From Patescibacteria group bacterium (GTDB taxonomy: Bacteria > Patescibacteriota > Microgenomatia > 0-14-0-10-38-17), in NCBI GenBank assembly GCA_050953885.1, contig JBMNNJ010000001.1, positions 271,437-335,436 of the forward strand: a stretch of 64,000 nt of DNA, given 5' to 3'. The position numbers and the translations under genes were made by a program. The notes below the pieces were generated by a model that saw nothing but the letters and a program-made list of their open reading frames with translations, was not told where the DNA came from and made no database searches. This document shows, piece by piece, positions 2,851 through 63,304 of this stretch. The stretch's first letter is position 1, and every line of letters starts with the position of its first letter.

Positions 2851-2851
2851 A

Positions 2852-3033
2852 ATTCAAAGACAATAAATAAACTCAATAAACTCAAATGTTAAATCGCAAA
2901 ACTCAAAACTACAACTCAAAACTTAAATCTAAAAAAAACAACTTTAAGCCTCAAAAAGTTTTAACATTTGCCATGTAGACCTGCCTGCCGGCAGGCAGGT
3001 TTGCCATTTGCGTTTTGAGATTTGAGTTTTAAC
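2852..3033 (-). repeat. MITE-like intergenic repeat, copy 1 (reverse orientation; carries extra perfect palindrome ACCTGCCTGCCGGCAGGCAGGT at 2979-3000)
   Basis: Shared core CTACATGGCAAATGTTAAAACTTTTTAAAACTTAAAGTTG (here as its reverse complement). Shared flanks AAACTCAAAxCTCAAA... with copies at 6955-7135, 12781-12935, 46651-46800 and 63095-63255. Confidence 0.8.
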
Positions 3034-3220
3034 TTATCCGCCAGCTGGCGGATCAAAATGCAAAATCAGTAATCCGTAATAGGTAACTCGTAATACGTAA
3101 TTATCAAAGACAGGATTATTCTTTTAATTACGAGTTACTAACCTTTTATATTTTACTTTTTAATTTTAACTTGTACTTTTGAATTTTGAATTTTGACTTT
3201 CTTTAGCAATTTATCTTTTT

Positions 3221-4492
3221 ATGTCTAAAATTAAAAAAGTGGAAGCTCGGGAAATTTTAGATTCCCGCGGCAATCCTACCTTGGAAACCACCATTATTTT
3301 GGATAATAATATCTGGGCAAAAGCCTCGGTTCCCTCAGGGGCTTCTACCGGCGCCAACGAGGCACTTGAACTGCGGGATAACGACCCCAAACGCTATTTG
3401 GGTAAGGGGGTGCTTAAAGCTGTTTATAACGTAGAAAATGAAATTGGCCCAAAAATTATCGGCCTTGATCCTTATGAGCAGGAAAAAATTGACAAGGTAA
3501 TGATTGAAGCCGACGGCACGAAAAACAAGAAGAATTTAGGCGCCAACAGCATTCTTTCCTGCTCCATTGCCGTTTTGAAAGCCGCCGCCCAAAACGAAAA
3601 TCAGCACCTCTTTGAATATTGCCGCCGAAAAGCCCAGGAGGCCGGCCTAAAGCTTCCCGAAGAAGAGAAAATTCCCATCCCGGTTTTAAACTTAATTAAC
3701 GGCGGCAAGCATGGGGCCGGCAACTTGGAATTTCAGGAGTTTCACATCATTCCTTGGGGAATTAAAGAATACCACGAACAACTGCGGGCGGCTACCGAGG
3801 TTTACCACCAAGTTGAGGCAATTCTTGAAGAAAATCAGGCGATCCATTCGGTGGGTGATGAAGGCGGTTTTGCCCCCAATTTATTTACCAATCTGGACGC
3901 CATTGAGGTGGTTGTGCGCGCCATTAATAAAGCCGGCTATCTTCTCCATAAAGATATTTATTTAGGCCTTGACGTGGCCGCTGATTTTTTTTATAAAAAT
4001 AACCGCTACAAAATTCGCGACCGCAGCGCTCCGATGGAGGCCAGCGCTCTTATTGATTACTACCGCGACTTAAGAAACCAATACCCCCTGCTTCTTTTGG
4101 AAGACCCCCTTTATGAAGAAGATTTTAAAGGATGGGCCCAGCTGGCGGCCAGTTTTGCTAACGATCAGACTATTTTAGTCGGCGACGATCTTTTGTGCAC
4201 CAATATCGAACGGGTGGAAAAAGCGATCAGCGAAAAAAGCTGCAACGCAGTTTTAGTTAAACCCAATCAAGTAGGCACCATCAGCGAAACTTTTGAAGTA
4301 ATAAAGCGCAGTCGCGAAGCTGACTGGCAGGTAGTGGTTTCCCATCGTTCGGGGGAGACTAACGATACTTTTATCGCCGATTTTGCCGTGGGCGTGGGGG
4401 CTGATTTTGCCAAATTAGGCGCCCCGGCGCGGGGAGAGCGGGTGGCCAAATACAACCGGCTTTTGGAAATTGAGGAGATAATAACTCGCTAA
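3221..4492 (+). CDS. eno: Enolase
   Basis: The N-terminus MSKIKKVEAREILDSRGNPTLETTI and SVPSGASTGANEALELRD are canonical enolase signatures. Confidence 0.95.
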   Translation: MSKIKKVEAREILDSRGNPTLETTIILDNNIWAKASVPSGASTGANEALELRDNDPKRYLGKGVLKAVYNVENEIGPKIIGLDPYEQEKIDKVMIEADGTKNKKNLGANSILSCSIAVLKAAAQNENQHLFEYCRRKAQEAGLKLPEEEKIPIPVLNLINGGKHGAGNLEFQEFHIIPWGIKEYHEQLRAATEVYHQVEAILEENQAIHSVGDEGGFAPNLFTNLDAIEVVVRAINKAGYLLHKDIYLGLDVAADFFYKNNRYKIRDRSAPMEASALIDYYRDLRNQYPLLLLEDPLYEEDFKGWAQLAASFANDQTILVGDDLLCTNIERVEKAISEKSCNAVLVKPNQVGTISETFEVIKRSREADWQVVVSHRSGETNDTFIADFAVGVGADFAKLGAPARGERVAKYNRLLEIEEIITR

Positions 4493-4590
4493 TTCAAAAT
4501 TTAAAAGTTAAAATTCAAAATTGCAAGTCAAAAGTTAAAAGTTTTTTACTTTACTTTTGAATTTTGAATTTTGACTTTTGACTTTTTATC

Positions 4591-6210: not shown

Positions 6211-6906
6211 ACAGAAACAAACAACCACTTCTCCCTTTATTTTTCGGCCGCAAATTTTGGGAAAAACTTCTTCTAAGCTGCCACGAACTACTTCTTCGTG
6301 AACTTTAGTTAATTCCCGGGCAACGGCCACTTGAGGATTGCCCAAAATCTCCTTCATTAAGGAAAGCGTTTTTTCCAAACGATAGGGCGATTCGTAAAAA
6401 ATAAATGTTGACGAAAGGGAAGAAAGGGCAATTTTAGCGCTTTCTGCAAAAATCTTTCGCTTTTTGCCTTCTTTTTTAGGCAAAAACCCCAAAAAGAAAA
6501 ATTTATCCGGCGGCAAGCCGGAAAGAATTAAGGCGGTTATCGCCGCGCAGGGGCCGGGGATAGCCGTTATTTCTACCCCCTCCCTGATGGCTTCCCGCAC
6601 CAAAAAAAATCCCGGATCAGAAATAAGCGGGGTGCCGGCGCTGGAGACAAGAGCAATTTTTTGACCTTCCTTCAAACGTCTGATAATTTCCGGCGTTTTT
6701 CTTCTTTCGTTTTCTTCATAAAAAGCCAAAAGAGGCGGAAAGGGCTTTTTTTTGTCCCCAAAAGACTGAAGGAAATAACCGGTACGACGTGTATCTTCGC
6801 AAAGAATTAAATCCGCCTCAAGAAGCGTTTTTTGCGCCCGAGCGCTTAAATCTTCCCTATTGCCGATGGGGGTGGAAACAAGATATAATGGCACAGTAGA
6901 AATCAA
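6202..6906 (-). CDS. rsmI: 16S rRNA (cytidine1402-2'-O)-methyltransferase
   Basis: LYLVSTPIGNREDLSxRA...ILCEDTRRT is the tetrapyrrole-methylase fold of RsmI. Confidence 0.85.
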   Translation of the reverse strand: MISTVPLYLVSTPIGNREDLSARAQKTLLEADLILCEDTRRTGYFLQSFGDKKKPFPPLLAFYEENERRKTPEIIRRLKEGQKIALVSSAGTPLISDPGFFLVREAIREGVEITAIPGPCAAITALILSGLPPDKFFFLGFLPKKEGKKRKIFAESAKIALSSLSSTFIFYESPYRLEKTLSLMKEILGNPQVAVARELTKVHEEVVRGSLEEVFPKICGRKIKGEVVVCFCLN

Positions 6907-6954
6907 CTGCTAAAAGACGCGAATTAACGCAAATGAGAAACGAATGGACACGAA

Positions 6955-7135
6955 AAATAAACGCAAATATTAAATCGCAATCCGCCAGCTGGCGGATCAA
7001 AACGCAAATGGCAAAACTACATGGCAAATGTTAAAACTTTTTAAAACTTAAAGTTGTTTTTTTTAGTTTTGAGTTTTAACATGTAGTTTTGAGTTTTGCG
7101 ATTTGAGATTTGCGATTATTTTTATTATATCGTGT
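6955..7135 (+). repeat. MITE-like intergenic repeat, copy 2
   Basis: See copy 1. It sits in the rsmI/DedA divergent intergenic region, next to ATCCGCCAGCTGGCGGAT at 6980-6997. Confidence 0.8.
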
Positions 7136-7794: not shown

Positions 7795-8108
7795 TAAAAA
7801 GACAAGAGCGCTAAGTGTATCATGAAAAATTCAAAGTCCAAAAGGCAAAATCATGCTTGAAATGCGTGAAATGCGTGAAACGCTTGAGACGTCAACCAAA
7901 CATCACCCGCTTCAAACTTTAAACATTTCAAGCCTCAAACTTTAAGGCAGATCCTGATTTTCATCAGGATGACACTTTCGTCAGAGCCTGTCCTGAATTT
8001 AATTCAGGAATGACGGTTGCGTCAAAATGACGGTTTAAATTAATTTCTAATTTCTTAATTTCAGCGAACAGAAGCAAGCGAATTTCTCTTAATTTCCGTC
8101 TTGCGCTT

Positions 8109-11509: not shown

Positions 11510-11744
11510 ATTCAAAAGTCAAAATTCAAAATTCAAAATTAGAAAACTAAATTGCTAAATTGTTAAAAACGTCATCCTGAACTTGATTCAGGATCGTCTT
11601 AAGAAACGGATTCTGACTTTCGTCAGAATGACGACCACGATCATCGTCATCCCTGAATTAAATTCAGGGCAGGCTCTAAACTTGATTCAGGATCAATTAA
11701 AAATACCCCTCTGGTAAAAGTTAGTATGGATTTTTTAGGATATT

Positions 11745-12359: not shown

Positions 12360-12700
12360 AAGAAAAATTCTATTCGTCAGCTGGCGGATAAAATTATTCC
12401 TGTAACCGCCCCGTAACCGTTATTCCTGAATTAAATTCAGGACAGGCTCTGACGAAAATCAGGATCTGCCGTTTTCTGACAATAACACAGATTCCGGATC
12501 AAGTCCGGAATGACGGCACGGCTGTCGTCATTCCTGAATTAAATTCAGGACAGGCTCTGACGAAAGTCAGGGTCTAACTGATTCTGAATCAAGTTCAGAA
12601 TGACGCTAATCGTGGCCGTCACCCTGACGAAAGTCAGAACCTGTAACCGCCCCGTCCGTCATTCTGACGAAAGTCAGGATCGGCTTTAAAGCTTGATGCT
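12360..12700. repeat. Array of short tetraloop hairpin units (TCTGACGAAAGTCAGGA; CCTGAATTAAATTCAGG; CTGAATCAAGTTCAG)
   Basis: At least 9 hairpin units are concatenated here. The same units recur at about 395-500, 7925-8035, 11555-11700, 25465-25530, 35320-35350 and 35690-35720. Confidence 0.8.
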
Positions 12701-12780: not shown

Positions 12781-12935
12781 CGCGAATGGACACGAAAAAT
12801 AAACTCAAAACTCAAATGGCAAATGGCAAATCTACATGGCAAATGTTAAAACTTTTTAAAACTTAAAGTTGTTTTTTTAGTTTTGAGTTTTAACATGTAG
12901 TTTTGCGTTTTGAGATTTGAGATTTGAGTTTATCT
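12781..12935 (+). repeat. MITE-like intergenic repeat, copy 3
   Basis: See copy 1. Confidence 0.8.
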
Positions 12936-13034
12936 TTTGTTTTTGAATTTTGCCTTTTGAATTATTTTTGCGCCAGTCATTTGCTCATTCGTGTCCATTC
13001 GCGTATCCGTAGCAATATCGCAATTTAACAATAA

Positions 13035-16662: not shown

Positions 16663-16941
16663 TCAGTCTGTTTTATACTCTTTTTTTACTCTTTCGGCGA
16701 GAAAAATTTTCATCAAAGACTGATAAGGAATATCTTTCTCGTGAGCAAGTTTTTTAAGAGCACTAAGCAAACTCTCCGGTAAACGGATTGTCACGGACTT
16801 GGTCGATGGCCTTAGCTCCGATAAGTCGAGATTGACAGGCTGGAAAATCTCTAAATAATCGGTAAAATCATGAGTTTCCCAAAACTTTCTCTCTTCCTCT
16901 TCGGTTCTAAATTCCGATAGGGTTTTTTTATTTTTTTTCAT
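16663..16941 (-). CDS. brnA: BrnA-like antitoxin (CopG/RHH family)
   Basis: It lies just downstream of, and overlaps, the brnT-like gene. The C-terminal segment SVTIRLPESLLSALKKLAHEKDIPYQSLMKIFLAERV matches BrnA. Confidence 0.6.
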   Translation of the reverse strand: MKKNKKTLSEFRTEEEERKFWETHDFTDYLEIFQPVNLDLSELRPSTKSVTIRLPESLLSALKKLAHEKDIPYQSLMKIFLAERVKKEYKTD

Positions 16942-17227
16942 AAAGATTTCTTTCTCTTTTACTCATATCACGAGCCGAAATGATTCTTACTTTTTCCCCT
17001 CTTAGGGTAAAAACAAGAAATAATTTTCTCCCCTCGTTAGTTTTTCCTAAGCCGACAAATCTTTTCTCTTTTTGGGAATGGTGAAAATCATAAAACAGCT
17101 TTAAATTCTTATCAAAAAATACTTCTTCGCTTTCTCTAAAACTAACGCGATGCTTTTCCCCATTTTTATATTTATTTACCTCATCCCAATCGAAACCTAA
17201 AATCTTTCTTCCCTTCTTGCCCCTCAT
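16928..17227 (-). CDS. brnT: BrnT-like toxin (DUF497 ribonuclease)
   Basis: FDWDEVNKYKNGEKHRVSFRESEEVFFD...RIISARDMSKRERNLY matches the DUF497/BrnT consensus. Confidence 0.7.
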   Translation of the reverse strand: MRGKKGRKILGFDWDEVNKYKNGEKHRVSFRESEEVFFDKNLKLFYDFHHSQKEKRFVGLGKTNEGRKLFLVFTLRGEKVRIISARDMSKRERNLYEKK

Positions 17228-17416: not shown

Positions 17417-20323
17417 ATGGAAGAAATTATTATTCGCGGCGCGCGCCAGCATAATCTCAAAAATATTGATGTTGCCATTCCCAAAAACAAGCTGGTGGTT
17501 TTAACCGGCCTTTCCGGCTCCGGTAAATCATCACTTGCCTTTGACACCCTTTATGCCGAAGGCCAACGCCGCTATGTGGAATCGCTTTCCACCTACGCCC
17601 GCCAGTTTTTGGGAATCATGAACAAGCCGGATGTGGACGCCATTGAAGGCTTATCGCCGGCCATTGCCATTGACCAAAAAAGCGTCTCCCAAAATCCTCG
17701 TTCCACCGTGGGCACGGTAACCGAAATTTATGATTACCTGCGCCTGCTTTTCGCCCGCATCGGTCATCCCCACTGCCCAAAATGCGGCCGGGAAATAAGC
17801 CGCCAGTCGCCGGAGGAAATTTTAAATCTTGCCAAAGCTTTAATTCGGGAAAAAGTGGGCCAGAAAGGGGTGGCCCGGCTTTTCATCCTTTCGCCTTTAG
17901 TTTCCGGCAAAAAAGGCGAGCTTGCCGGTCTTTTTGAAAACCTTATTAAAAAAGGCTTCAGCTTTATTCGCCTTGACCGCCAATTTTTCCGCCTTGACGA
18001 GGATTTTACGATTTTAAAAAACAACCGCCACACCATTGAGGCGGTGGTGGATCGCCTTTCTTTTGAAAAAAAAGACCTGAAAAACGAAAAAAGCCCCCAG
18101 TGGCAGCGTTTGGCCGAAGCGATTAACAGCGCTCTCACTCTTTCCAATGGCGAGGTAATTTTAATGGAGGCCAATGACGCAAGCTTTGAAATGCCCGACC
18201 GGCCCAAAGAAACCATTGACCATCTTTTCTCCGAGCTTTTTGCCTGTCCGGTTTGCGGCCTTTCCCTGCCCGAGGTGGAACCGCGCACCTTTTCTTTCAA
18301 TTCTCCCTTTGGCGCCTGCCCCACCTGCAACGGTCTTGGTGCCCTTTTGCGATTTGATCCCAAATTGGTTTTGAATCTTAACTTATCCGTTTCCGAAGGG
18401 GGCATTATGCCCTTGGGGAAAATTTACTATCAGGACAACTGGTATGCGCGCATTTTTAAAAAATTTGCCGAAGAAGAAAAAATTGACCTGCGCCGGCCTT
18501 TAAAAGAACTGCCAAAAGAAGATCTTAAGAAAATTCTTGAAGGCACAGGTGAAAAAATTTACCGCGTTTCCGGCACTAATCGTTTTGGGGAAGAAACCAC
18601 CATCCGGGAAAAATTCCCGGGCATTCTCGCAGAACTTAAGCGCCGCTACGAAGAAACCGATTCCGACTTTATCCGTCAGGCCTTGGAAAAATTCATGAAC
18701 TACCAACTTTGCCCCACTTGTCACGGCACCCGGCTTAAAGCTGAAGCCTTAGCGGTAACCATTTTAGGGAAAAATATCTATCAGGCAAGCCAGCTTAATG
18801 TTGAGCAATTGCTTTCCTGGCTTGATAATTTTCCCGTTTCCTCCCGCGAGCAAATTATTGCCGCCCCCATTTTGAAAGAAATCAAAAGCCGCCTTACTTT
18901 TCTTAAAGCCGTCGGCCTTGATTATTTAACGCAAAACCGCCTCTCCGGAAGCCTTGCCGGCGGTGAAGCCCAACGAATTCGGCTTGCCTCCCAAATCGGC
19001 ACCGGTTTAACCGGCGTTTTGTATGTTTTAGACGAACCCACCATTGGCCTTCACCCCCGCGACGGCCAAAGGCTAATTGACACCCTCAAAAACCTGCGCG
19101 ATTTGGGCAACTCGGTGGTGGTGGTGGAGCATGACCGCCAAACCATCGAAAGCGCCGATTATGTTCTCGACTTTGGCCCGGGAGCAGGGAAAAATGGCGG
19201 CCGGGTGATTGCCCAAGGAACACCAATGGAGATTAAAAATAATCCCCAGTCGGTCACCGGCCCCTACCTTGCCAACAAAAAGAAAATTAAAATTCTTGAA
19301 AACGCAAGTGCCGGCCAGAATAGGGGAGCGATCAAACTTCAGAGCTGTTCGCAATATAATCTTAAAAATATTGACGTTTCCTTTCCTTTGGGAAAATTTA
19401 TCGGCGTTACCGGCGTTTCCGGCTCGGGAAAATCAACACTGGTAACGGAAACGCTTTATCCGGCTCTTGCCAAGTCCTTGGGATACGCCTTAAAAAGAGA
19501 GCCGGGACAATTTACCAACCTTGAGGGCGCGGATAAAATCCGCCGTGTTTATTTAATTGACCAGTCGCCCATTGGCCGCACTCCCCGCTCCAATCCGGCC
19601 ACCTATATCAGTGTTTTCACCGACATCCGCCAGCTCTTCGCCTCGCTGCCGGAGGCAAAAATCCGCGGCCTAAAACCCGGCCATTTTTCTTTTAATGTTC
19701 GCGGCGGCCGCTGTGAAGCCTGCCAAGGCTTTGGAGAAATAAAAATCGAGATGCAATTCTTATCGGATATTTTTGTTAAATGCGAAGTTTGCGGGGGTCA
19801 GCGTTACAACAGCGACACCCTGGAAATCCGCTATAAGGAAAAAAACATCGCCGAAGTTTTATCCCTGACGGTGGAAGAGGCGCTTTCTTTTTTCCAAAAT
19901 ATCCCCCCCATTGCCCATAAACTACAAACCTTGATGGATGTTGGCTTGGGTTATCTTCAGCTTGGTCAGCCGGCGCCCAATCTTTCCGGCGGCGAGGCGC
20001 AAAGAATTAAAATTGCCCATGAGCTGGTTAAAAAAGGGTCAGGCCAAACCTTTTACATTTTAGATGAGCCCACCACCGGCTTGCATTTTGCCGACTTGGA
20101 AAAATTAATTAAAGTTTTGCGCCAGCTGGTTAACGAAGGAAACACGGTGGTGGTTATTGAACACAATTTAGATCTAATTAAAAATTGCGACTGGGTTATT
20201 GACTTGGGACCCGAGGGGGGAGAGCGGGGCGGGGAAATTATTGCCCAGGGCTCACCGGCGGAAATTGCCCAAAACCCCCGCTCCTATACTGGAAAATATC
20301 TTAAAGAATTGCTAAACTTCTAA
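17417..20323 (+). CDS. uvrA: Excinuclease ABC subunit A
   Basis: Two ABC ATPase modules ([28 protein letters not shown]; [11 protein letters not shown]). Zinc-finger cysteines CPKCGR, CPVCG, CEAC are present. The length is 968 aa. Confidence 0.95.
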
Positions 20324-20569
20324 AGGACGCGAATTAACACGAATTAAAAACGAATGGGCACGAATGAGCGAATAATTGGTGCAAAAATAATTCAAAATTC
20401 AAAAGTCAAAATTCAAAATTTCAAGTTAAAAGTTTTTTGCTCTACTTTTGAATTTTAAATTTTGAATTTTGATTTAGGCTTTAATCTTTGATATTTGCGT
20501 TTTGAGATTTGAGTTTTTTTTACCTATTGCGCATTACGAAAATTTCTTAATCTCTTAGTATCTTAACTT

Positions 20570-22396
20570 ATGCCTTTTCTTTTTCTCTTTCTTCTTCTTT
20601 TCTCTTTCTTTACTTCGCCTGTCCGGGCTGCCGGTGAATTTGGCCTTTCCCAAACCATTACCTATCAATTTGACCAAAACGGCAACGCCCAAGTTTTTCA
20701 GGAAATCGCCCTCGAGAATAAACTGGCCAACATTCACGCCACCCAATACCAAATAACCATCAGCGGCGGAGCGGTGCAAAACATTAAGGCCACAGAAGGT
20801 GATCAAAATCTTCGGACCGAAATTAAAGAGCCCCAGCGAAATCTCACCCAGGTAACCGTTTTTTTTGACCAGCCGGTGGCGGGCTTGGGGAAAAAACGCC
20901 AGTTTAGCCTGCAGTATTTCCTGCCGGATTACGCCAAAAAAGAGGGGCAAACCTGGCGGGTGCTAATTCCTAAAATCAACAAGATGGAAGAGCTGGAAGA
21001 GCTAATCATTAACATTAGCGCCCCAAAAAATTGGGGGCCAGCCTCTTTCGTTTCTCCCAAAAACTACACTCAAAAAGAAGAAGGAGAAAGACAAATCGTC
21101 ACTTTTTCTAAAAACCAGTTAGGCGAAAAAGAGGTGATGCTTATCTTCGGCCAGACCCAAGCCTTTCGTTTTTCTCTGAATTATTATCTTGAAAACACGA
21201 GTGCGGAGGAAAAAATTCAAGCCTTAGCCCTCCCTCCCGATACCTCTTACCAGAAAATATTTCTCACCAAAATCGACCCCGAACCCTTGGATGTTGAAGT
21301 AGACGATGATGGCAACTGGCTGGCAAGCTATCGTTTGCCTCCCAATTCAGCAATAAGAGTAAAAGCAGAAGGTTTAGCCCAAATAAGCGGTCAGCCTCTT
21401 TCTCCCCCCTTGCCACCAAAAGACTTAAGCCAATATTTACAGGCAAAAAAATATTGGGAGAAAGATGCCCCTCCCTTTCAGGACTTGGCCGAAAAACTTA
21501 AAACCCCCGAAGAAATTTATCAGTTTGTCCTTGCTACCCTTGACTACAACCTTGAAAAAGTTAAAAATCGCCAAGTGCAACGGCAGGGCGCTCTTAACGC
21601 TTTTAATAATCCCGATCAAGCAATTTGCACCGAATTTACCGATTTGTTCATCGCCCTTGCCCGGGCCGCCGGCATTCCCAGCCGCGAGCTTAACGGCTAT
21701 GCTTATTCCACCAACCCGGAACTTTTGCCCCTCACTCTTGATGCCGATGTTCTTCATGCCTGGCCGGAGTATTGGGATGAAAAACGGCAAACTTGGATTC
21801 AGGTTGACCCCACCTGGGAAGACACCAGCGGCATTGATTATTTTAATAAACTTGATATGTCGCATCTGGTTTTTGTTATCCACGGCTTGGATAGCGTTTC
21901 GCCGCCACCGGCCGGAGCATATCAAGATCCCGCTTTGGGAAAACAAAAAAATGTGGAGGTAGAATTTTCCCTCGCCCCCCAGGCAGAGCTTCTTCCCTTG
22001 GCAATTGATTTTAATCTTCCCCAAAAAGTTTCTTTTGGCCAAAAAGCAAGCGGAGAAATTACGGTGAGAAACATTAATCCCGTTGCTTTTTATAATCAGG
22101 AGGTTAAAATCACCAGCGAGGGCCTTCCTTTGGAGCCTTTCGGGAAAACCTTAGCTGCTTTCCCGCCCTACGCCAATGAGGTTTTTGCCGTTAATTTCAC
22201 CAACCAGAATTTATTTAAAGAAAGCGTGGGCAGAATTTTGGTTCAGGTCGGCAATCAGGAGCCGGTAGCGGCCACGATTATCCTCACCTCGCCTTTGGCA
22301 AATCCCCTTTTTCTCAATCTGCTTATCGGCTTGGCGGGGATAGTGGTGGTGGGGATAATCATTTATTTGGTAAAGAGTTTTAAAAAAAGAAGATAA
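20570..22396 (+). CDS. Transglutaminase-like (cysteine protease fold) domain protein, signal peptide plus C-terminal TM anchor
   Basis: Transglutaminase core CTEFTDLFIALARAAGIPSRELNGY ... HAWPEYWD ... WIQVDPT (Cys-His-Asp). An N-terminal signal peptide and a C-terminal hydrophobic helix are present. Confidence 0.75.
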   Translation: MPFLFLFLLLFSFFTSPVRAAGEFGLSQTITYQFDQNGNAQVFQEIALENKLANIHATQYQITISGGAVQNIKATEGDQNLRTEIKEPQRNLTQVTVFFDQPVAGLGKKRQFSLQYFLPDYAKKEGQTWRVLIPKINKMEELEELIINISAPKNWGPASFVSPKNYTQKEEGERQIVTFSKNQLGEKEVMLIFGQTQAFRFSLNYYLENTSAEEKIQALALPPDTSYQKIFLTKIDPEPLDVEVDDDGNWLASYRLPPNSAIRVKAEGLAQISGQPLSPPLPPKDLSQYLQAKKYWEKDAPPFQDLAEKLKTPEEIYQFVLATLDYNLEKVKNRQVQRQGALNAFNNPDQAICTEFTDLFIALARAAGIPSRELNGYAYSTNPELLPLTLDADVLHAWPEYWDEKRQTWIQVDPTWEDTSGIDYFNKLDMSHLVFVIHGLDSVSPPPAGAYQDPALGKQKNVEVEFSLAPQAELLPLAIDFNLPQKVSFGQKASGEITVRNINPVAFYNQEVKITSEGLPLEPFGKTLAAFPPYANEVFAVNFTNQNLFKESVGRILVQVGNQEPVAATIILTSPLANPLFLNLLIGLAGIVVVGIIIYLVKSFKKRR

Positions 22397-25379: not shown

Positions 25380-25591
25380 GATAAAACACGAATAGACGCG
25401 AATAAGAAACGAATAAACACGAATGAGCGAATGATTGGCAAGACAAGCTCGCGATAACGGTCACTATCATCCTGAACTTGATTCAGGATCAAAACAGATT
25501 CTGACTTTCGTCAGAATGACAGATTCCTTACCTATTACGTGTTACGCATTACGCATTAATATCTTAATATCTTAGTATCTTTTGAAAACAG

Positions 25592-25975: not shown

Positions 25976-26238
25976 CAGATTAAATTGTATGTTGTATTGA
26001 ATATAAAAAGCTGACATTGCCGTATTGTTTAAACTGACAAATCCGCCAGCTGGCGGAAAAAATTAAAACCTAAATCAAAGCGGGAATTTGTAGGGGTCGA
26101 CCCATGTGTCGACCCGATTAATGGTTTTAAATAGGCAAGCGCGGATTCTTTGAAGGGCGGACACATAGGTCCGCCCCTACAATTCGCGTCGATTCGTGTT
26201 TTAACAGTTTAGCAATGTCTCTTAATATCTTAGCCTAG

Positions 26239-26520: not shown

Positions 26521-26651
26521 GAGAGAAATACATCTTCTAAGTGTCCCAGGTTCACGCCTGGCATATTTTTACTCTTTGGTAATAAAATACGACTAATATA
26601 CTCCAGGTGTCAAGTTAAGACACTTTCCAGGTGTACACACAGGTGTACAAC
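26521..26651 (+). repeat. About-130-bp direct repeat, copy A (CAGGTG-rich; left boundary of islet, immediately 3' of tRNA-Gln)
   Basis: Aligns over about 130 bp with 29629-29763 and 30864-30982, all in the same orientation. Shared blocks include CCAGGTGTCCCAGGTTCACACCTGG and CCAGGTGTCAAGTTAAGACAC. Confidence 0.85.
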
Positions 26652-29628: not shown

Positions 29629-29763
29629 GAAGAAATACACCTTCTAGGTGTCCCGGGTTCACACCTGGCATATTTTTACTCTTTGGGCAATAAAACACGA
29701 CTAAAACATACTCCAGGTGTCAAGTTAAGACACTTGCCAGGTGTACAATACCAGGTGTACAAC
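29629..29763 (+). repeat. About-130-bp direct repeat, copy B (internal to islet)
   Basis: See copy A. A TGTATAAT -10-like element follows at about 29781-29788. Confidence 0.85.
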
Positions 29764-30673: not shown

Positions 30674-30874
30674 TTAAAGTTTATCTTCTTTTTCCCGCTC
30701 ATTAATTTCCTTCTCAGTAAATTCTCGAGTGAAAGGCAAAAGTTGAGGATCAATAAAAGCCTTTTGATAAATCCTGGCGACTTCCTTTTCGAGTTTAGCC
30801 AAATACTCAACATCCACCAAAACAGCTTCAGGTTTGCCGTTGCGAGTAAAGAAATTGACGGTTGAGAAATACAC
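30674..30874 (-). CDS. Phd/YefM-like antitoxin, apparently N-terminally truncated (GTG start at edge of repeat C)
   Basis: TRNGKPEAVLVDVEYLAKLEKE matches the RGKPVAVLVS.EEYE core of Phd/YefM. Only about 10 residues precede it instead of about 30. The upstream frame runs into repeat C and stops. Confidence 0.5.
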   Translation of the reverse strand: MYFSTVNFFTRNGKPEAVLVDVEYLAKLEKEVARIYQKAFIDPQLLPFTREFTEKEINEREKEDKL

Positions 30875-30982
30875 CTTCCAGGTGTCCCAGGTTCACACCT
30901 GGCATATTTTTCCTCTTTGGTGATAAAACACGACTAAAATATACTCCAGGTGTCAAGCTAAGATACTTTCCAGGTGTACAAA
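30864..30982 (+). repeat. About-130-bp direct repeat, copy C (right boundary of islet)
   Basis: See copy A. Confidence 0.85.
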
Positions 30983-31016
30983 TCCACTGAGAATAAAAAA
31001 ATTAATTGCGATCTTA

Positions 31017-35215: not shown

Positions 35216-35461
35216 CAAATTAGTCATTTGGCTAAATCGTATTTAGTATTAAGTATTAAGTCTGACTAGGATATAATTCGTCATGATGAATTCAATTCAG
35301 CATCTTTATGTAATGTTTTAGATTCTGACTTTCGTCAGAATGACGTTTCCGACAAATTAACGGTTTAACAATATAGTGTATTGTATTTTTACCCCTATCA
35401 TATATAATACAAGAGACAAAATACTAATTTTCATTTTTAACTTTTAAATTTTAACTGTTTT

Positions 35462-35634: not shown

Positions 35635-35825
35635 CTAATCAACTGTATTTTGTATTCAGTATTAAGTATTCTGTATCAAAAAGATTCTGACTTTCGTCAG
35701 AATGACGTTTCCGACAAATTAACGGTTTAACAATATAGTGTATTGTATTTTTACCCCTATCATACGCAATACAAGATACCAGAGACAAAATACTAATTTT
35801 GATTTTTACTTTTAACTTTCTCTTC

Positions 35826-46581: not shown

Positions 46582-46650
46582 GAGACGAGAAAAATGCAAA
46601 TAACTTGTAATGCGTAATAAGCAAACGCAAAAAACAAAGCCTAAATAAAA

Positions 46651-46800
46651 ATTCAAAGACAATAAATAAACTCAAATCTCAAATGTCAAAACTCAAAACT
46701 ACAACTCAAAACTCAAATCTAAAAAACAACTTTAAGTTTTAAAAAGTTTTAACATTTGCCATGTAGTTTTGCCATTTGACATTTGCGTTTTGAGTTTATT
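46651..46800 (-). repeat. MITE-like intergenic repeat, copy 4 (reverse orientation)
   Basis: See copy 1. It begins with the same ATTCAAAGACAATAAATAAACTCAA terminus as copy 1. Confidence 0.8.
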
Positions 46801-46848
46801 TTTCGTGTCTATTCGTTTTTAATTCGTGTCAATTCGTGTTTTCAAAAT

Positions 46849-50737: not shown

Positions 50738-50912
50738 AAATACACGAATTAGCACGAATGGGAAACGAAAGAACACGAATGAGCGAATGAAATGTTGTAG
50801 GGGCGTATTGCATACGCCCGCAACAATTTAACAGTTTAACAATATAACAATATAACAATTTGTTTACCATTTTTCTCTTGTTAAGATTGTCTCTTCGTGT
50901 TATCATAATCTT

Positions 50913-51708: not shown

Positions 51709-51935
51709 ACCTTACCAAAAAATAAAAAAGGGGGAAAATGTTGTTGGATTTGTAGGGGCGGGGTTTCCCCGCCCGAAATCAAACGGGTCGGAAAACCCGA
51801 CCCCTACAGGGAACAGACATACAAATTTATTACAACCTCCAGCAATGAAACAATGAAACAATGAAACGATACACATTCGTATCCATTCGTTTCTTTTAAC
51901 AATTTAGCAGTTTAACAATTCAACAATTTAACCAT

Positions 51936-55427: not shown

Positions 55428-55560
55428 GAGTAGCGCGCACCAGTTATTCGCTCATTCGCACCCATTCGTCTCTCATTCGTGTTATTCGTGTCTATTCCTA
55501 ATTTCTTAATTCAGCAAGCGATAGCAAGCGAATTTCTTAATTTCTCTCCAGTCTTTCCCA

Positions 55561-57433: not shown

Positions 57434-57905
57434 TTACACCTTAGCTAATTACACCTTAGAGGTGGTTACTATTTGCACCTCTGGTAAAAATAATTACACC
57501 TTAGAGGTGGGTTGTCCCGCCATAGCGGGATCCGCCTTTGGCGGTCCGCTCGGGACGGATCCCGCCACGGCGGGACTATTTGCACCTCTGGTAAAAATGT
57601 AATTACACCTTAGAGGTGGGTTTCTATTTGCACCTCTGGTAAAAATGAACTTCTTAAGGTCAAAAATTTTGCTTCTTCTATTGATGAGTATCTGGGAAAA
57701 AAGAAGGAATGCCGCAAAAGCACTTAGCTTATACAGGGGATAATCCTTATCGTTTTAAGATTATTTCTTCGTACTTAATTAAGAACAGACAAAAAAATTA
57801 ACGTCATCTATCCAAAAATTGAGGAAAAATTATTAATTGCCAAAGGATAATCAATAAAAAGAGTAGGGGAGGCGCTAAACTAACAGGCGCCAGCTTATCA
57901 AGCCC

Positions 57906-58738: not shown

Positions 58739-59041
58739 ATGAAAGCAAAAATTCATCCCCAGTACTATCCTCAGGCGAAAGTAACTTGCGCTTGCGGCAA
58801 CACCTTTACCACCGGTTCAACCCAACCGGAAATTAGGGTGGAAATTTGCGCTCAATGCCATCCCTTCTTTACCGGCGAGACCAAATATGTTGACAGCGGC
58901 GGCCGGGTAAAAAGATTTGAGGAATGGCGGCAAAAAGCCCAAGAAAATCCGCGCCAAAAGAAGGGGAAGAAAAAAATCACTTCACAAACGTCGCCTGCTT
59001 CGCTCAAAGAAATGCTGGAAAAAGCGGCAAAAAATGGCTAA
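58739..59041 (+). CDS. rpmE: 50S ribosomal protein L31 with Lys-rich C-terminal extension
   Basis: [10 protein letters not shown]...CxC...CxxCHPFFTG is the bL31 zinc ribbon. About 25 extra basic residues follow. Confidence 0.85.
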
Positions 59042-59705
59042 CGCGATTTTAGAGGTCAGACCAGGCCCCGGGGGAGAGGAGGCCAGGCTTTGGCAACAAG
59101 ATCTCCTGCGTATGTACGCCCGCTTTAGCGCCAAAAAAGGTTGGCAAGTAGAGGCTTTGGATGAAAACACTCTTCGCGTTCGGGGAGAAGGCGCTTTTGA
59201 AATCTTAAAAAACGAAGCCGGCGTTCACCGCGTTCAGCGAATCCCCAAAACCGAAAAAAGAGGCCGGCTGCATACTTCCACCGCTACCGTTGCCGTCTTG
59301 CCAGAAATCCCGGAAACAGAACTTCGCCTCTCTCCTGATGAAATTGAATTTGAAGCGTTTCGCGCTGGCGGCCATGGAGGGCAAAATGTTAACAAGGTCG
59401 CTACTGCGGTCCGTCTTCGTCACAAACCCACCGGCATCGTTGTTTCCTGCCAATCCCAACGATCGCAGGAACAAAATCGCCAACTGGCTCTAAATTTGCT
59501 CCGCGCCAAGCTTTGGCAACAAGAGGAGGAAAAAAAAGAAGTAAAAATTAACGCCCTGCGACGGCAGGCCATTGGCAGCGCCAAAAGAGCCGAGAAAATC
59601 AGAACTTATAACTTCCCCCAAAATCGGGTTACCGATCATCGCCGCGGCAAATCATGGAAGGTTTTAGACGAAGTGATTGACGGAAACTTGGAAAAAATTA
59701 TCTGA
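59034..59705 (+). CDS. prfA: Class I peptide chain release factor, RF1-type (PxT = PKT; GGQ) lacking N-terminal domain 1
   Basis: It starts at [13 protein letters not shown], the beginning of RF domain 2. The tripeptide motif is [13 protein letters not shown] is present. The protein is 224 aa. The ATG overlaps the rpmE stop by 8 nt. Confidence 0.8.
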
Positions 59706-59714
59706 CCCCAATGG

Positions 59715-60872
59715 TTACTCTGTTCTTTCTCGCAGGGTTACTTCTATTTCCTGGTTTTCTCCTTCCCGCCACAATAAAATTTTTACTTTCTCGCCCACCT
59801 TTTTCTTATTAATAATTTCTGCTAAACCTCCTTTGGCATCTTTTATTTTTTGGCCATCAATGGAAATCAGAATATCGCCTCTTTTAATTCCCGCCTTGTC
59901 AGCCGGCGAACCCGCCGCCACCTCCACCACATACGCCCCTTCGGGAATTTCGTTCAAAATTGCCGCTTCCCGAGAAATCATCGTATAATTAACCCCTAAA
60001 AATGGTCGGGAAAATTCACCTGTCTGGCGAAAATCGGCTAAGGCAGTCTTAACTGTATTAATGGGAAGAGCAAAGCCGATATTCTCCGCCCCCGAGGCCA
60101 CCGCCACATTTACTCCCACCACCTGTCCCGCCGAGTTGATTAACGGCCCGCCGGAGTTGCCGGGATTAATCGCCGCGTCAGTTTGAATAACATTATCCAG
60201 TTCTTCCACATAGCCTTCAAAAACAGAACCGGCGGTGATGCCCCGCCCCAGCCCGGAAATAACCCCGGTGGTCACCGTATGGCGAAACTCGCCTAAGGCC
60301 GTCCCAATCGCCACCACAAACTGCCCCACCTTAAGATTATCGGAATCGCCCAGCTCTACCGGCGTTAATCCTTGGGCATCAATTTTTAAAAACGCCAAGT
60401 CGTTAGCCGGATCGCGGTAAATATTTTGCACCGGGTAACTTTGATTGTCGGCGGTAATCACCTGATACTGGGCTTGGCTATCGGCCACCACATGCTTGTT
60501 GGTAACAATCAAACCTTGCGCGTCAACCACAAAACCGGTTCCCACATCCTGCTGGATTTCCTGCTCGCCGCCGGGGAAAACAAAGCCAAAAAAAGAAAAA
60601 AGATCCGAAGGCAGACCAAGGGATTGCTTTTTCTTCATCCCCACCGTGACCACCGAGGGGGAAGCTTTTTCGGCCACCTCAATCACCACCGATTCTTCCC
60701 GCACCACTTTTTGCTCCACTACCGTCGTCCCCGGCGAGGAAATGCCAGAGGGGGAAGAAAAACGATCCAAAAAACCAAAATGAAATTGGCGATCCAAAAA
60801 AGCGCCTCCTAAAACCAAACCGACCGCCAAAAGAACAATGGCAAAGTTAATCAGAAGGTTTTTGGGCTTCAT
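59715..60872 (-). CDS. htrA: HtrA/DegP family serine protease with PDZ domain
   Basis: Catalytic triad context (TNKHVV; GNSGGPL). C-terminal PDZ. N-terminal anchor. Confidence 0.9.
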   Translation of the reverse strand: MKPKNLLINFAIVLLAVGLVLGGAFLDRQFHFGFLDRFSSPSGISSPGTTVVEQKVVREESVVIEVAEKASPSVVTVGMKKKQSLGLPSDLFSFFGFVFPGGEQEIQQDVGTGFVVDAQGLIVTNKHVVADSQAQYQVITADNQSYPVQNIYRDPANDLAFLKIDAQGLTPVELGDSDNLKVGQFVVAIGTALGEFRHTVTTGVISGLGRGITAGSVFEGYVEELDNVIQTDAAINPGNSGGPLINSAGQVVGVNVAVASGAENIGFALPINTVKTALADFRQTGEFSRPFLGVNYTMISREAAILNEIPEGAYVVEVAAGSPADKAGIKRGDILISIDGQKIKDAKGGLAEIINKKKVGEKVKILLWREGENQEIEVTLRERTE

Positions 60873-61024
60873 TGACCTTATTAAACTAATGAGAAACGAA
60901 TAACCGAATTGCGAATAACATATTCGCTGTAAACTGTTGCGGGCGTATGCAATACGCCACCTACGGATTGCGATTCGCTAACATTCGCGTCTATTCGCTT
61001 TCTATTCGTGTCAATTCGCCTCTT

Positions 61025-61858
61025 TTAACAATTTAACAATCTACCAGTTAACCCTCTTCCTCTTCCGAAAGCACCTTCCGTGGGTTTGGAAAGAACCTCT
61101 TCACCATTTGTCCAAAGATAAATCAACACCGCCTCCATCCGCTGGCTCTCTTCTTTTTCTCCCACTAAAACCACCCTTACGCCTTTTTTCAAGTCGCTAA
61201 AGTTTCCTCTCACCGGCCCTTTTCCGGCCTCTTTTTTAATAACCCTTGCCTTTTCGGCATTTATCTCCCAAGTTTGGCCATCATTCCCTTCTAGGCTAAA
61301 AACCGCCTCTTCCTGGGAAACATCGCTTACCCGGCCAAAAAAAGACTGCCGGGCAATCTCTTGCGGCCTACTTTTAAGAATTCTCTTGGCCGCTAACTCT
61401 GGCGAAGAAAGCCGCTCTTGATATCCCATCGCCACCAAAAAATCGCCTTCCCTTAAGCTTTCCGGCGTTATTTTCTGGCGATTTTCATTTAAAAAAACCG
61501 TTTCCTCATCAAAAAAAATTCTCTTGCTTTCTTTATCCTTCAAAAGAACGATTACCCCCTCCTGGTTGTCAACCGAAACCACTTCGCCGCTCCAGCCTTT
61601 CTTAACCGGTGTTAAGGCTTCTTTCCCTTCTGCCTCCTCAATAAGCGCCTCTACCTCTTCCTGGATTTGTTCAACTTTTTGGTTATCCTCTTGGCTAAGA
61701 GGAACATCAACCGTTTCTCTTGCTTCCGCTAATGCCGCCGCCTCTTCTTGGACAATCTTCTCCAAATCGGCCGCAAAAACTCTCCTGCTCACCGCCATTA
61801 GCAAAAAAACCAACAAAAAGCCCTTGGTAAATAAAATTATTTTTTTTCTTTTTCCCAT
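61025..61858 (-). CDS. Hypothetical secreted protein
   Basis: Signal peptide (VFA|AD). An acidic coiled region followed by a beta-rich C-terminal domain. I recognise no family. Confidence 0.4.
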   Translation of the reverse strand: MGKRKKIILFTKGFLLVFLLMAVSRRVFAADLEKIVQEEAAALAEARETVDVPLSQEDNQKVEQIQEEVEALIEEAEGKEALTPVKKGWSGEVVSVDNQEGVIVLLKDKESKRIFFDEETVFLNENRQKITPESLREGDFLVAMGYQERLSSPELAAKRILKSRPQEIARQSFFGRVSDVSQEEAVFSLEGNDGQTWEINAEKARVIKKEAGKGPVRGNFSDLKKGVRVVLVGEKEESQRMEAVLIYLWTNGEEVLSKPTEGAFGRGRGLTGRLLNC

Positions 61859-61871
61859 AAAAAACCGCTTC

Positions 61872-62300
61872 TTAAATCTTAGCGGTAGAATAAACTAAAG
61901 TCAAGTTTTTTTCCGCCTGATTGCCTTCCTCATCATAAGCAGTGACTTTAATTTCATTTGCCCCACCTACAAGGGTGATTTCGGTTTCAAAATTACCCTC
62001 TTCATCTGCCTCCACAATATTCTCTCCTTCAGGATAAATCACCACCACCACGCTTTCTGGCGCCGTTTTCCCCTCCAAGGTAATCTTCTCCTCCTCAATA
62101 ATGCTTTCATCTTCAGGGCTAATAATTTCAAGAGAAAGGGAAGGAACAGGAGCAAGAGTAGGGGGCTGTTCTAACACTGGCGTTGGCGTAATATTTAAGC
62201 TTTCCTCTGTTGTCGCCTTATTTGTCCACCAAAGCCCCCCAATAACCAACAAGCCTAACACCACCCCGCCAACAATGGCTAAAATAACTTCTTTACGCAT
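61872..62300 (-). CDS. Hypothetical membrane-anchored protein with Ig-like C-terminal domain
   Basis: N-terminal TM. A Thr/Pro linker. The C-terminal KVTAYDEEGN resembles a bacterial Ig-like fold. Confidence 0.4.
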   Translation of the reverse strand: MRKEVILAIVGGVVLGLLVIGGLWWTNKATTEESLNITPTPVLEQPPTLAPVPSLSLEIISPEDESIIEEEKITLEGKTAPESVVVVIYPEGENIVEADEEGNFETEITLVGGANEIKVTAYDEEGNQAEKNLTLVYSTAKI

Positions 62301-62377
62301 ATTTTTAACAACTATATATACTATAGTCTATCCCCCACGGCATTGTCAATGGGAAAAATTTGTGGTAAAGTAGGGGT

Positions 62378-63034
62378 ATGGAAATCTGGTATTTAGGCCA
62401 TTCTTGCTTTCGCTTGCGCACCAAAAACGGGGTAATTATTACCGACCCTTATGACCCTCAAATTGGCCTCAAAATGCCAAAGGCAGAAGCGGAAGTCGTC
62501 ACCGTTAGCCACCACCATTTTGACCATAATCGGCCTGATTTGGTAGAAGGTAACCCCAAGGTATTAAAATGGCCGGGAGAATACGAAATTAAAGAGATTT
62601 TTATTACCGGCCTGCCTTCTTATCATGATAAAAAACAAGGGCAGGAAAGAGGAGAAAACGTTATTTTTCTTTTTGAAGCGGAAAAGATAAAAGTTTGTCA
62701 TTTAGGCGATTTAGGAGAAAAGCCAGCGGCAAAAGTTTTAGAAACCATTCATTCGCCGGACATTCTTTTCCTTCCTGTCGGCGGCAATTTTACTCTTTCT
62801 CCCCAAGAAGCAGCCGCTTTAGCAAAAGAGCTTGAACCAAAGATTATTATTCCGATGCACTACCAAGTTCCTCAATTAGCAAGCGACTTAAAAGAAAAAT
62901 TAGCACCTCTTTCTGAATTTGAAAAAGCCTGGGGGCAAAAAATAGAAACTCTTCCTAAACTAAATATCACCAAAGATGATCTTATCTTAAGTGAAGGAAT
63001 AAGGGCCGTGCCCTTAGAAGCGCGTAACTCGTAA
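62378..63034 (+). CDS. MBL-fold metal-dependent hydrolase (UPF0173-like)
   Basis: The HxHxDH variant SHHHFDHN, and the family size of about 220 aa. Confidence 0.8.
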   Translation: MEIWYLGHSCFRLRTKNGVIITDPYDPQIGLKMPKAEAEVVTVSHHHFDHNRPDLVEGNPKVLKWPGEYEIKEIFITGLPSYHDKKQGQERGENVIFLFEAEKIKVCHLGDLGEKPAAKVLETIHSPDILFLPVGGNFTLSPQEAAALAKELEPKIIIPMHYQVPQLASDLKEKLAPLSEFEKAWGQKIETLPKLNITKDDLILSEGIRAVPLEARNS

Positions 63035-63094
63035 TCCGTAACTCGTAACCGGTAAATAAACAAGCGCAAAAGCGCAATAATACGCGAATTGACA

Positions 63095-63255
63095 CGAAAA
63101 ATAAACTCAAATCTCAAAACGCAAATGTCAAATCTACATGGCAAATGTTAAAACTTTTTAAAGCTTAAAGTTGTTTTTAGTTTTTAGTTTTGAGTTGTAG
63201 TTTTGAGTTTTGCGATTTAACATTTGAGTTTATTTATTGTTTTTAAACTTTGATT
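63095..63255 (+). repeat. MITE-like intergenic repeat, copy 5
   Basis: See copy 1. It ends GAGTTTATTTATTGT, the reverse complement of the copy 1 and copy 4 start. Confidence 0.8.
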
Positions 63256-63304
63256 TAGGTTTTGTCCCGCTATGACGGGACATTTTGCCTTTTGACTTTT
63301 TATC

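Follow-up and report, generated by a model that had tools for sequence, protein, structure and literature searches.

The window analysed here, a stretch of 64,000 nucleotides from a Patescibacteria group bacterium (GTDB class Microgenomatia; assembly GCA_050953885.1, contig JBMNNJ010000001.1, positions 271,437 to 335,436), contains five copies of a palindromic, AT-rich element of typically about 170 bp that is found between genes only. In the reading that we favour, with some reserve, this element is a non-autonomous, lineage-specific and non-coding dispersed repeat, which moves into intergenic spacers with no duplication of the target site and is subsequently reshuffled. Identical proteins identify the source contig as JGI Ga0591961_000307, and the public gene calls around the copies are those of that contig.

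Copies, anatomy and distribution of the repeat

A sequence-only reading of this DNA had described a sequence resembling a miniature inverted-repeat transposable element (MITE), present five times, in both orientations and at very high density. When the 64 kb were searched with nhmmer using a profile built from three copies, exactly five strong matches were obtained (E values of about 1e-36 to 1e-50), and search and alignment thus bore out the five places. The copies are pairwise 88.5-94% identical over 148-165 aligned columns, and in a MAFFT alignment of all five about 130 nt are almost invariant. No open reading frame (ORF) of 60 or more amino acids lies inside them, and both the ORF listing and the JGI gene calls place every copy strictly between genes, as had been claimed; according to the latter, the neighbours of copy 2 start at 6894 (TP_methylase gene, - strand) and at 7132 (VTT-domain gene, + strand). 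The density is indeed very high: the source contig has eight copies within about 80 kb.

The proposed shared core of 58 nt is present exactly in copy 3 (12832-12889; 0 matches expected in shuffled sequences), but the other copies carry it with a few substitutions or with indels of 1-3 nt. The flank words AAACTCAAA, AAATGGCAAA and AAACGCAAA are present. The terminal motif ATTCAAAGACAATAAATAAACTCAA holds in part: copies 1 and 4 have it at one of their ends, and copies 3 and 5 have a variant of its complement, but the opposite end is formed by another module (ACGAATGGACACGAAAAATAAACTC). The perfect 22-bp GC palindrome in copy 1 and the sequence ATCCGCCAGCTGGCGGAT after this copy were both confirmed. 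Each copy had also been taken for a long palindrome, and every copy does fold into a single long hairpin (RNA folding: -46 to -57 kcal/mol, z -8 to -10.7; DNA folding: z -3.7). Read on the + strand, copy 1 consists of an A-rich arm, the inverted core and a T-rich arm. Copy 3 is asymmetrically enclosed by an outer palindrome of ACGAAT/ATTCGT words (ATACGCGAATGGACACGAA ... TTCGTGTCCATTCGCGTAT). The weak relative listed in Table 1 forms inverted repeats with positions 4489-4587.

Table 1 Position of the repeat copies and associated features in the window (E, nhmmer E value)
Feature	Position	Strand	Evidence and context
Copy 1	2851..3033	-	nhmmer 2851-3029, E 9.5e-36; spacer from PPDK stop (2850) to enolase
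Copy 2	6942..7131	+	nhmmer 6942-7123, E 3.2e-39; TP_methylase/VTT divergent spacer
Copy 3	12784..12949	+	E 1.7e-49; 864-nt spacer between NUDIX (-) and UvrB (-)
Copy 4	46650..46814	-	E 1.1e-49; ATP-grasp gene (stop 46581) to RimK-like gene (start 46849)
Copy 5	63086..63249	+	E 1.3e-47; metallo-beta-lactamase-fold gene (stop 63034) to dnaB (start 63305)
Core of copy 3	12832..12900	+	69 bp between CTAC and GTAG; invariant alignment columns
Weak relative	20383..20529		E 1.5e-5; second-family palindrome (AAAATTC/TTTTGAA arms), then TTTGCGTTTTGAGATTTGAG words
Nested 22-bp perfect GC palindrome ACCTGCCTGCCGGCAGGCAGGT	2979..3000		Adjoins core GTAG in copy 1
18-bp perfect palindrome ATCCGCCAGCTGGCGGAT	3036..3053		Abuts copy 1; five window sites of its family, counting variants
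Nested ATCCGCCAGCTGGCGGAT	6980..6997		Within left arm of copy 2
TATAAT box	6884..6889	+	Faces into copy 2; 10/12 match; conserved in L054 and L078
TATAAT box	7124..7129	-	Faces into copy 2 from the other side; conserved

The anatomy of the element, which is about 150-200 bp long in the family as a whole, was derived from an alignment of 24 unique uninterrupted copies. The left arm is made of 4-6 A-rich heptamer words of the form CAAAnnn (CTCAAAA, CGCAAAT, GGCAAAT, GTCAAAT and others), and the right arm of T-rich heptamers of the form nnnTTTG (TTTTGAG, TTTTGCG, ATTTAAC, ATTTGAG), so that four nucleotides per heptamer are conserved (CAAA/TTTG) and three are variable. Between the arms lies a unique, almost invariant core that runs from CTACATGG through [CA/GT]TGTAG and is bounded by CTAC and GTAG, which are internal to the element and pair with each other. 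Owing to the complementarity of the arms, an A-rich arm, the centre and a T-rich arm follow one another on both strands, and each strand folds to one long hairpin. The left arm and the reverse-complemented right arm do not have their words in the same order, and each order is kept among the copies. These two distinct, conserved word orders, together with the unique core, show that the copies descend from one ancestral element and are not independently grown palindromes. The copies differ by whole-word shifts of register, that is, by gain or loss of heptamer units. Their outer boundaries are ragged: homology stops at different words in different copies, and some copies run on into a ACGAATGGACACGAAAAAT module and others into a AAAATTCAAAGACAATAAAT module, either of which may stand on either side of the core.

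The window encodes bacterial housekeeping functions (PPDK, enolase, iPGM, UvrA/B/C, S6-SSB-S18, HisRS, DnaB and 17 tRNAs). The host is an uncultured Microgenomates bacterium of anaerobic digesters, close to Candidatus Shapirobacteria. The nearest species-representative genome is a metagenome-assembled genome (MAG) of Candidatus Shapirobacteria (Microgenomates, candidate phyla radiation (CPR)) from a sludge digester, with an enolase 92% identical to that of the window; the remaining species-representative relatives of this enolase are at most 63% identical and all belong to Patescibacteria. A census of metagenomes for exact matches to the invariant 23-mer CATGGCAAATGTTAAAACTTTTT found it on 67 independent contigs from anaerobic digesters and activated sludge. 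Searching the fetched loci with nhmmer yielded 86 strong copies, which clustered by their flanks into about 49 site clusters, or roughly 45 or more distinct genomic sites; the core can thus be aligned far beyond the five loci of the window, and the similarity is not limited to low-complexity composition. Three further copies are located on the source contig just outside the window (L068:6467-6637, L168:13629-13765 and L168:15742-15889), the latter two being a subfamily with a diverged centre. A sister species (L078) has a diverged copy without CTACATG (L078:1714-1811), and no copy was detected in loci fetched from 79 more distant Patescibacteria genomes. The exact 23-mer had no match in 185,579 species-representative genomes, which thus do not include the genome of this lineage itself, and none in a scan of viral contigs; the latter result indicates that the repeat is not phage-borne. 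From its absence in these two sets, the diverged copy in the sister species and the lack of copies in the loci of the 79 distant genomes, we conclude that the family is roughly restricted to a genus.

Metagenome contigs tend to end at the element: 18 of 69 matches to the 23-mer were within 130 nt of a contig end, and short-read contigs with the PPDK gene of the window stop about 50-110 nt past the gene on either side. This indicates that the repeats break assemblies. Elsewhere, copies sit upstream of groEL and occupy the rplB|rpsS and rpsC|rplP spacers. As most bacteria have only a very short gap at these two ribosomal positions, the copies found there argue for an ability of the element to enter new sites.

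Replacement, inversion and nesting in orthologous spacers

Contigs that encode identical flanking proteins confirmed that the insertions are polymorphic among strains. An identical enolase of 423 amino acids is encoded on ten contigs with different upstream spacers: some carry copy 1, others arrays of CGTC-type hairpins together with GGGACGGTTAC repeats, and one (the NCBI MAG) neither. Similarly, contigs with an identical ATP-grasp protein have either copy 4 or a palindrome of ACGAAT words with GC hairpins. The TP_methylase|VTT spacer can be compared with that of L054, a related strain with 92% identical flanks: there the words of the outer arms run collinear with the window, and the centre and inner arms are reverse-complemented. 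This comparison shows that the centre is inverted in place between the arms, as expected for recombination between inverted arms. The two orientations noted in the sequence-only reading are therefore real, but they are partly explained by such inversion in situ. In the sister species, the same spacer holds a palindrome of a second family (AAAAGTC/TTTTGAC arms) and the flanking TATAAT boxes are kept. Mosaicism is also evident across the family: the 18 informative columns form 153 pairs, and 138 of these have all four gametes, which points to exchange between copies or recurrent switching of words, not to tree-like decay.

Two further contigs show rearrangements between strains with breakpoints at the repeats, although both may be assembly chimeras. 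On one (L074:3960-4712), the VTT gene and the element are inverted relative to the window; on the other (L072:4400-4840), a MurJ gene takes the place of PPDK upstream of copy 1. At the enolase|iPGM spacer, a second-family palindrome (AAAAGTT/TTTTGAA arms) is present in both species (window 4493-4590, L078:8612-8738), so that some spacer hairpins are conserved in place and others are exchanged.

Smaller GC-rich hairpins of 16-36 nt are nested in the element, and the alignment shows that they occupy fixed positions. A 21-nt insert is present in copy 1 and at the identical position in L030, L044, L057, L067 and L068:6467; this sequence, CCTGCCTGCCGGCAAGGCAGG, is always immediately 5' of [T/A]CTACATGG. 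A double hairpin of 36 nt is inserted within CTA^CATGG, and TCCGCCAGCTGGCGGA sits after GTAGTTTTGA or at the mirror position. ATCCGCCAGCTGGCGGAT belongs to a small family of GC hairpins that are nested in other copies as well. In length and GC content these hairpins fit repetitive extragenic palindromic (REP) sequences, and the opposite strand of the 21-nt hairpin reads GTAG-A-CCTGCC...GGCAGG, which is a canonical GTAG-tagged REP by the definition of Di Nocera et al. 2013 (PMC3733652), where GTAG- and CGTC-tagged REPs are described.

Tagged hairpins are also found elsewhere in the window. A second abundant hairpin family begins with CGTC (CGTCATTCTGACGAAAGTCAGAATGACG, CGTCATTCCTGAATTAAATTCAGGACAGGCTCTGACGAAAGTCAGGATC; about 395-500, 7945-8030, 11570-11700, 12400-12680, 25470-25525, 35316-35345 and 35678-35707); its units, which are similar to the CGTC-tagged REPs of PMC3733652, form clusters of at most about 300 nt and, in other strains, stand before enolase in place of copy 1. 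Hairpins that are rich in GC and start with GTAG (GTAGGGGCGTATTGCATACGCCC, GTAGGGGCGGGGTTTCCCCGCCC, GTAGGGGTCGACCC) lie at about 26090-26125, 26185-26222, 50797-50826, 51752-51812 and 60930-60964, and some of them form inverted pairs in the manner of REPINs. The GTAG-headed hairpins suggest that REPs of the type associated with tyrosine transposases (RAYT) exist in a CPR genome; no RAYT gene was seen in the window.

Relationship to known repeats, proposed mode of spread and possible function

The label MITE-like applies to the element in part. It is small (about 150-200 bp), non-coding, palindromic, polymorphic and multi-copy, with five copies in the window, eight on the contig and about 45 or more metagenome sites, but it lacks defined terminal inverted repeats and a target-site duplication, and no transposase was found among the 50 window ORFs scanned. 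Constant ends with inverted repeats are absent; the unit is imperfectly palindromic throughout, and its ends are ragged. For 37 unique copies, whose boundaries are fuzzy, the longest direct word common to both flanks averaged 4.43, compared with 4.28 ± 0.13 in mismatched controls.

The closest parallels are found among dispersed repeats of other bacteria. Like the REP, BIME and REPIN sequences of Enterobacteria and Pseudomonas, the element is extragenic and palindromic, occurs in many copies, forms mosaics with other small repeats, shows no target-site duplication and is likely to be transcribed into RNA hairpins; in addition, GTAG/CTAC tetranucleotides bound its core, and tagged GC-rich hairpins coexist with it in spacers and nest in it. 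It differs from them in that REPs are GC-rich, have only 20-40 bp, carry GTAG at the outer unpaired end and lie mostly downstream of genes, whereas the element has about 170 bp, is AT-rich, has arms of heptamer arrays, pairs CTAC with GTAG internally and is also found in divergent promoter spacers (7 of 31 contexts, by crude ORF calls); nor was a RAYT gene seen in the window. The bacterial MITE-like repeats Correia/NEMIS (Neisseria), ERIC/IRU (Enterobacteria), RUP and BOX (pneumococcus) and the Rickettsia palindromic elements (RPEs) are similar in being 100-200 bp long, non-coding and hairpin-forming, in lying between genes and inside operons, in being polymorphic among strains and in that they can be co-transcribed; BOX is likewise modular, and RPEs likewise thrive in a reduced genome. 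However, Correia and RUP are flanked by target duplications and end in defined terminal inverted repeats, RPEs are found in frame within genes, unlike the strictly intergenic copies described here, and none of these families has arms of heptamer minisatellite words.

Heptamer repeats are known from the cyanobacterial STRR sequences and from the TAACTGA repeats of Beggiatoaceae, Cyanobacteria and Bacteroidetes, which are intergenic (MacGregor 2015, PMC4679880). The element shares with them the 7-nt unit, the strictly intergenic location, often a few nucleotides upstream of gene starts, the context poor in ribosome-binding sites and the occurrence in ribosomal-protein operons. Those repeats are direct tandem arrays of a single heptamer; the words of the element, in contrast, vary at three of seven positions and form two complementary arms around a unique, non-periodic core, and the whole is a dispersed unit. 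The element thus fails the defining features of MITEs (ends, duplication), of REPs (size, composition and probably the outer tag) and of heptamer arrays (single unit, tandem arrangement). By analogy, it would appear to work most like the mosaics of REP, BIME and REPIN sequences and the elements of the Correia, ERIC, RUP and BOX type, and among the dispersed palindromic repeats of bacteria it is best read as a variant with a new architecture. Integron attC sites were also considered and rejected by eye, as the copies adjoin housekeeping genes of every orientation and do not match the R''/R' core motifs.

We propose that the element spread at the DNA level, as a non-autonomous unit, into intergenic spacers including those of ribosomal-protein operons, leaving no target-site duplication. 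The most likely route of copying would be through single-stranded hairpin intermediates, that is, by template switching during replication, by recombination between palindromes or by an enzyme of the HUH/RAYT type acting in trans. Such a route is suggested by the lack of defined terminal repeats and of duplications, by the palindromes within palindromes and by the association with GTAG. The copies would then be reshuffled continually by gene conversion between them, in addition to the observed gain and loss of heptamers, inversion of the centre and nested REP-like insertions.

At the RNA level, the element is predicted to be transcribed within 5' untranslated regions (UTRs), 3' UTRs and operon spacers, where it would form an AU-rich hairpin with a U-rich 3' arm. 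The two TATAAT boxes around copy 2 are conserved in L054 and L078, two species that differ in the interior of this spacer. Judged by its sequence, the box at 6884-6889 is a candidate promoter from which a transcript would carry the whole element as the 5' UTR of the VTT gene, and the box at 7124-7129 is a candidate promoter of the TP_methylase gene; if the two boxes are real, the entire element would serve each of the divergent mRNAs as 5' UTR. Within 14 kb, the GC hairpin of copy 1 (stem 2975-3004, 13 pairs, T-rich tail) ranks highest as a terminator-like site. The basic stem of the element is AU-rich, and only copy 1, with its nested GC hairpin, scores as terminator-like. Copies with nested GC hairpins may resemble intrinsic terminators, and the role of the others would not go beyond that of processing or attenuation sites and of a leader rich in U.

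Several results weigh against the proposed spread of a mobile repeat or limit what may be deduced about its function. A Pfam scan of 50 window ORFs revealed housekeeping, toxin-antitoxin and helicase genes only, and no transposase, RAYT or IS200/IS605 gene. The metagenome census required the exact 23-mer and is biased to conserved copies. Contigs with identical flanking proteins showed alternative cassettes or contig breaks but no clean empty site that would define an insertion junction, and the orthologous differences are all replacements of whole cassettes. RNAalifold analysis of 24 unique copies gave 36 pairs, 0 of them compensatory, so that a conserved RNA structure cannot be claimed; pairing is carried by the invariant CAAA/TTTG and the three variable positions per word are mostly unpaired, and the alignment thus speaks neither for nor against selection on the structure of RNA or DNA. 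In the 19 co-directional contexts (of 31 based on crude ORF calls, with 7 divergent and 5 convergent), the core was sense to transcription in 8 cases and antisense in 11. This lack of bias argues against a strand-specific RNA function of the asymmetric centre, and any function must lie in the symmetric architecture. Finally, 27 terminator-like sites were counted, compared with 22.7 ± 4.8 in shuffled sequence, and the promoter and terminator scans are consensus matches near background.

The main rival to a mobile repeat is a selected cis-acting hairpin module in each spacer, in which the similarity of copies would result from concerted evolution (gene conversion) of functionally equivalent hairpins serving as bidirectional terminator or attenuator, RNase III processing site or U-rich translation leader without Shine-Dalgarno (SD) sequence. 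We take this explanation seriously and consider it possible, if doubtful. It would account for an architecture that persists when one sequence family gives way to another in orthologous spacers, for the A-to-T polarity and period of 7 of the spacers in general, for the T-rich words directly before many start codons where SD sequences are nearly absent, for the presence of the element within essential operons and for the retention of this DNA in a genome expected, from general knowledge of CPR, to be small and streamlined; the TAACTGA heptamers upstream of start codons in RBS-poor genomes (PMC4679880) are a parallel. Against it speak the absence of covariation, the distance to start codons of about 7 to 190 nt, the strains that lack the element next to identical proteins (with L077 lacking any) and the occurrence in co-directional, divergent and convergent contexts alike. 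A related explanation, that the heptamer arrays are sites for a DNA- or RNA-binding protein (nucleoid-associated, S1, cold-shock or similar) and the palindrome a by-product of their symmetry, agrees with the four conserved and three variable nucleotides per heptamer and with the period of 7 in spacers genome-wide, and candidate binders have been proposed for the TAACTGA repeats (PMC4679880). It is very improbable, as the most conserved part of the element is a non-periodic unique core that word arrays leave unexplained, and no candidate protein was identified.

A classical MITE, that is, a deletion derivative of a DDE-type insertion sequence (IS) mobilised in trans through terminal inverted repeats and creating target-site duplications, would have the size, the lack of coding capacity, the palindromic ends, the dispersal, both orientations and the strain polymorphism seen here. 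Moreover, two identical 728-bp IS-like copies lie 5-9 kb past the right end of the window (L168:16589-17316 and 19923-20650); their translation, which contains stops and frameshifts, by eye resembles an integrase-core (rve-type) transposase. The ends of this sequence, however, have no similarity to those of the element, the 50 ORFs scanned in the 64 kb include no transposase, the target-site duplication signal is absent, the ends are ragged with alternative outer modules and the copies are mosaic instead of tree-like, so that we consider this origin distinctly unlikely. Chance similarity of low-complexity A/T-rich DNA has hardly any probability left: the arms are indeed built from few A/T-rich words that recur elsewhere in spacers, but no match is expected in shuffled sequence, the E values are as low as those given above, and about 45 or more sites of independent assemblies share the unique, invariant core. 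Equally negligible is an RNA-guide array (TIGR-type or CRISPR-like) or a known Rfam family. TIGR arrays, which consist of units of about 36 nt with box C/D flanking two spacers and an adjacent Nop-domain Tas protein, are frequent in Patescibacteria and occur in phages, and they share with the element CPR hosts, hairpins and weak conservation of the repeat sequence. The copies, however, are scattered one by one among housekeeping genes, no box C (RUGAUGA), box D (CUGA) or 36-nt unit was seen when their alignment was inspected, and no Nop-domain protein was encoded by the 50 window ORFs scanned (five ORFs in 58917-64000 were left out). Rfam gave tRNAs only at the gathering score, and its best match at a relaxed threshold was a plant miRNA precursor with a meaningless 31.8 bits (gathering score: 90).

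The spacers of the window and the meaning of the repeat

About 15% of the window is intergenic, and this part consists largely of modular repeats. Autocorrelation at lag 7 was 0.332 in intergenic DNA, compared with about 0.27-0.30 at neighbouring intergenic lags and about 0.25 in coding DNA at lag 7, and 25 of 35 spacers are A-rich and then T-rich (Wilcoxon p = 0.004). Further word families (TTTTGAA, ACGAAT/ATTCGT, CGTAAC, AACAATTT, TATTAAG) often form concentric palindrome shells, for example in the spacers 337-558, 4493-4590, 20324-20569, 25380-25591, 50738-50912 and 55428-55560. An SD-like tetramer was found in the upstream 40 nt of only 3 of 53 genes. Many genes (uvrB, uvrA, 16928-17227, 40611 and others) have a TATAAT-like box 6-12 nt before the start. 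This suggests that leaderless or SD-independent initiation is widespread. T-rich words directly precede many start codons, ending 7-10 nt before several of them.

A heptamer-word 'grammar', of which the element would be the most conspicuous part, could even extend across nearly all spacers as a functional, concertedly evolving UTR system and not as junk, an idea that we regard as unlikely. If it were true, every spacer would consist of concentric shells of A- and T-rich words (CGTAA, GCGCAAA, ACGAAT, then CAAAnnn) giving hairpin UTRs that replace SD initiation and classical terminators, a dedicated mechanism of copying or gene conversion would keep the shells uniform, and a protein reading heptamers would act on them.

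Other repeats and an intein were observed in passing. Three copies of a repeat of about 120 nt (...CCAGGTGTCCCAGGTTCACACCTGGCATATTTTT...CTCCAGGTGTCAAGTTAAGACACTT...; 26523-26643, 29630-29753 and 30864-30986; 74-90% identical) bracket the genes of an island of low GC content (34-36%). The products are an SF1 helicase that carries a DUF559 endonuclease domain, a PIN protein and that of an unknown ORF of 111 aa, whose strong GGAGG site sets it apart from the remainder of the window; this may be a mobile or defence island. A direct repeat of 132 nt (35320-35451 and 35682-35813, 87% identical), which includes a CGTC-type hairpin, lies between the successive tRNA genes Arg-TCT, Lys-TTT and Lys-CTT. 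A local family with at least three units (TTACACCTTAGAGGTGG ... TATTTGCACCTCTGGTAAAAAT; 57434-57700) surrounds a block of nested GC palindromes (GTCCCGCCATAGCGGGATCCGCCTTTGGCGG...). Following copy 5, dnaB (63305-64000 and L168:10928-13540) is split by an intein with a LAGLIDADG homing-endonuclease domain according to public Pfam annotation.

CPR/Patescibacteria genomes are generally described as very small and streamlined, and a repeat load of this kind is unexpected for such a lineage; no description of such repeats in Microgenomates or CPR was found in the searchable literature. There are practical consequences, since Illumina metagenome contigs of this lineage end at the element, so that its genomes are fragmented, and since the intergenic cassettes differ between strains with identical proteins, which comparisons based on proteins miss. 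The family joins features that are usually separate, namely heptamer minisatellite arms, a conserved unique core, flipping of the centre and REP-like hairpins at fixed positions, and it offers a natural system for studying hairpin-mediated copying of DNA. Given the near-absence of SD sites, these repeats may also inform how CPR bacteria specify translation and the ends of their transcripts.

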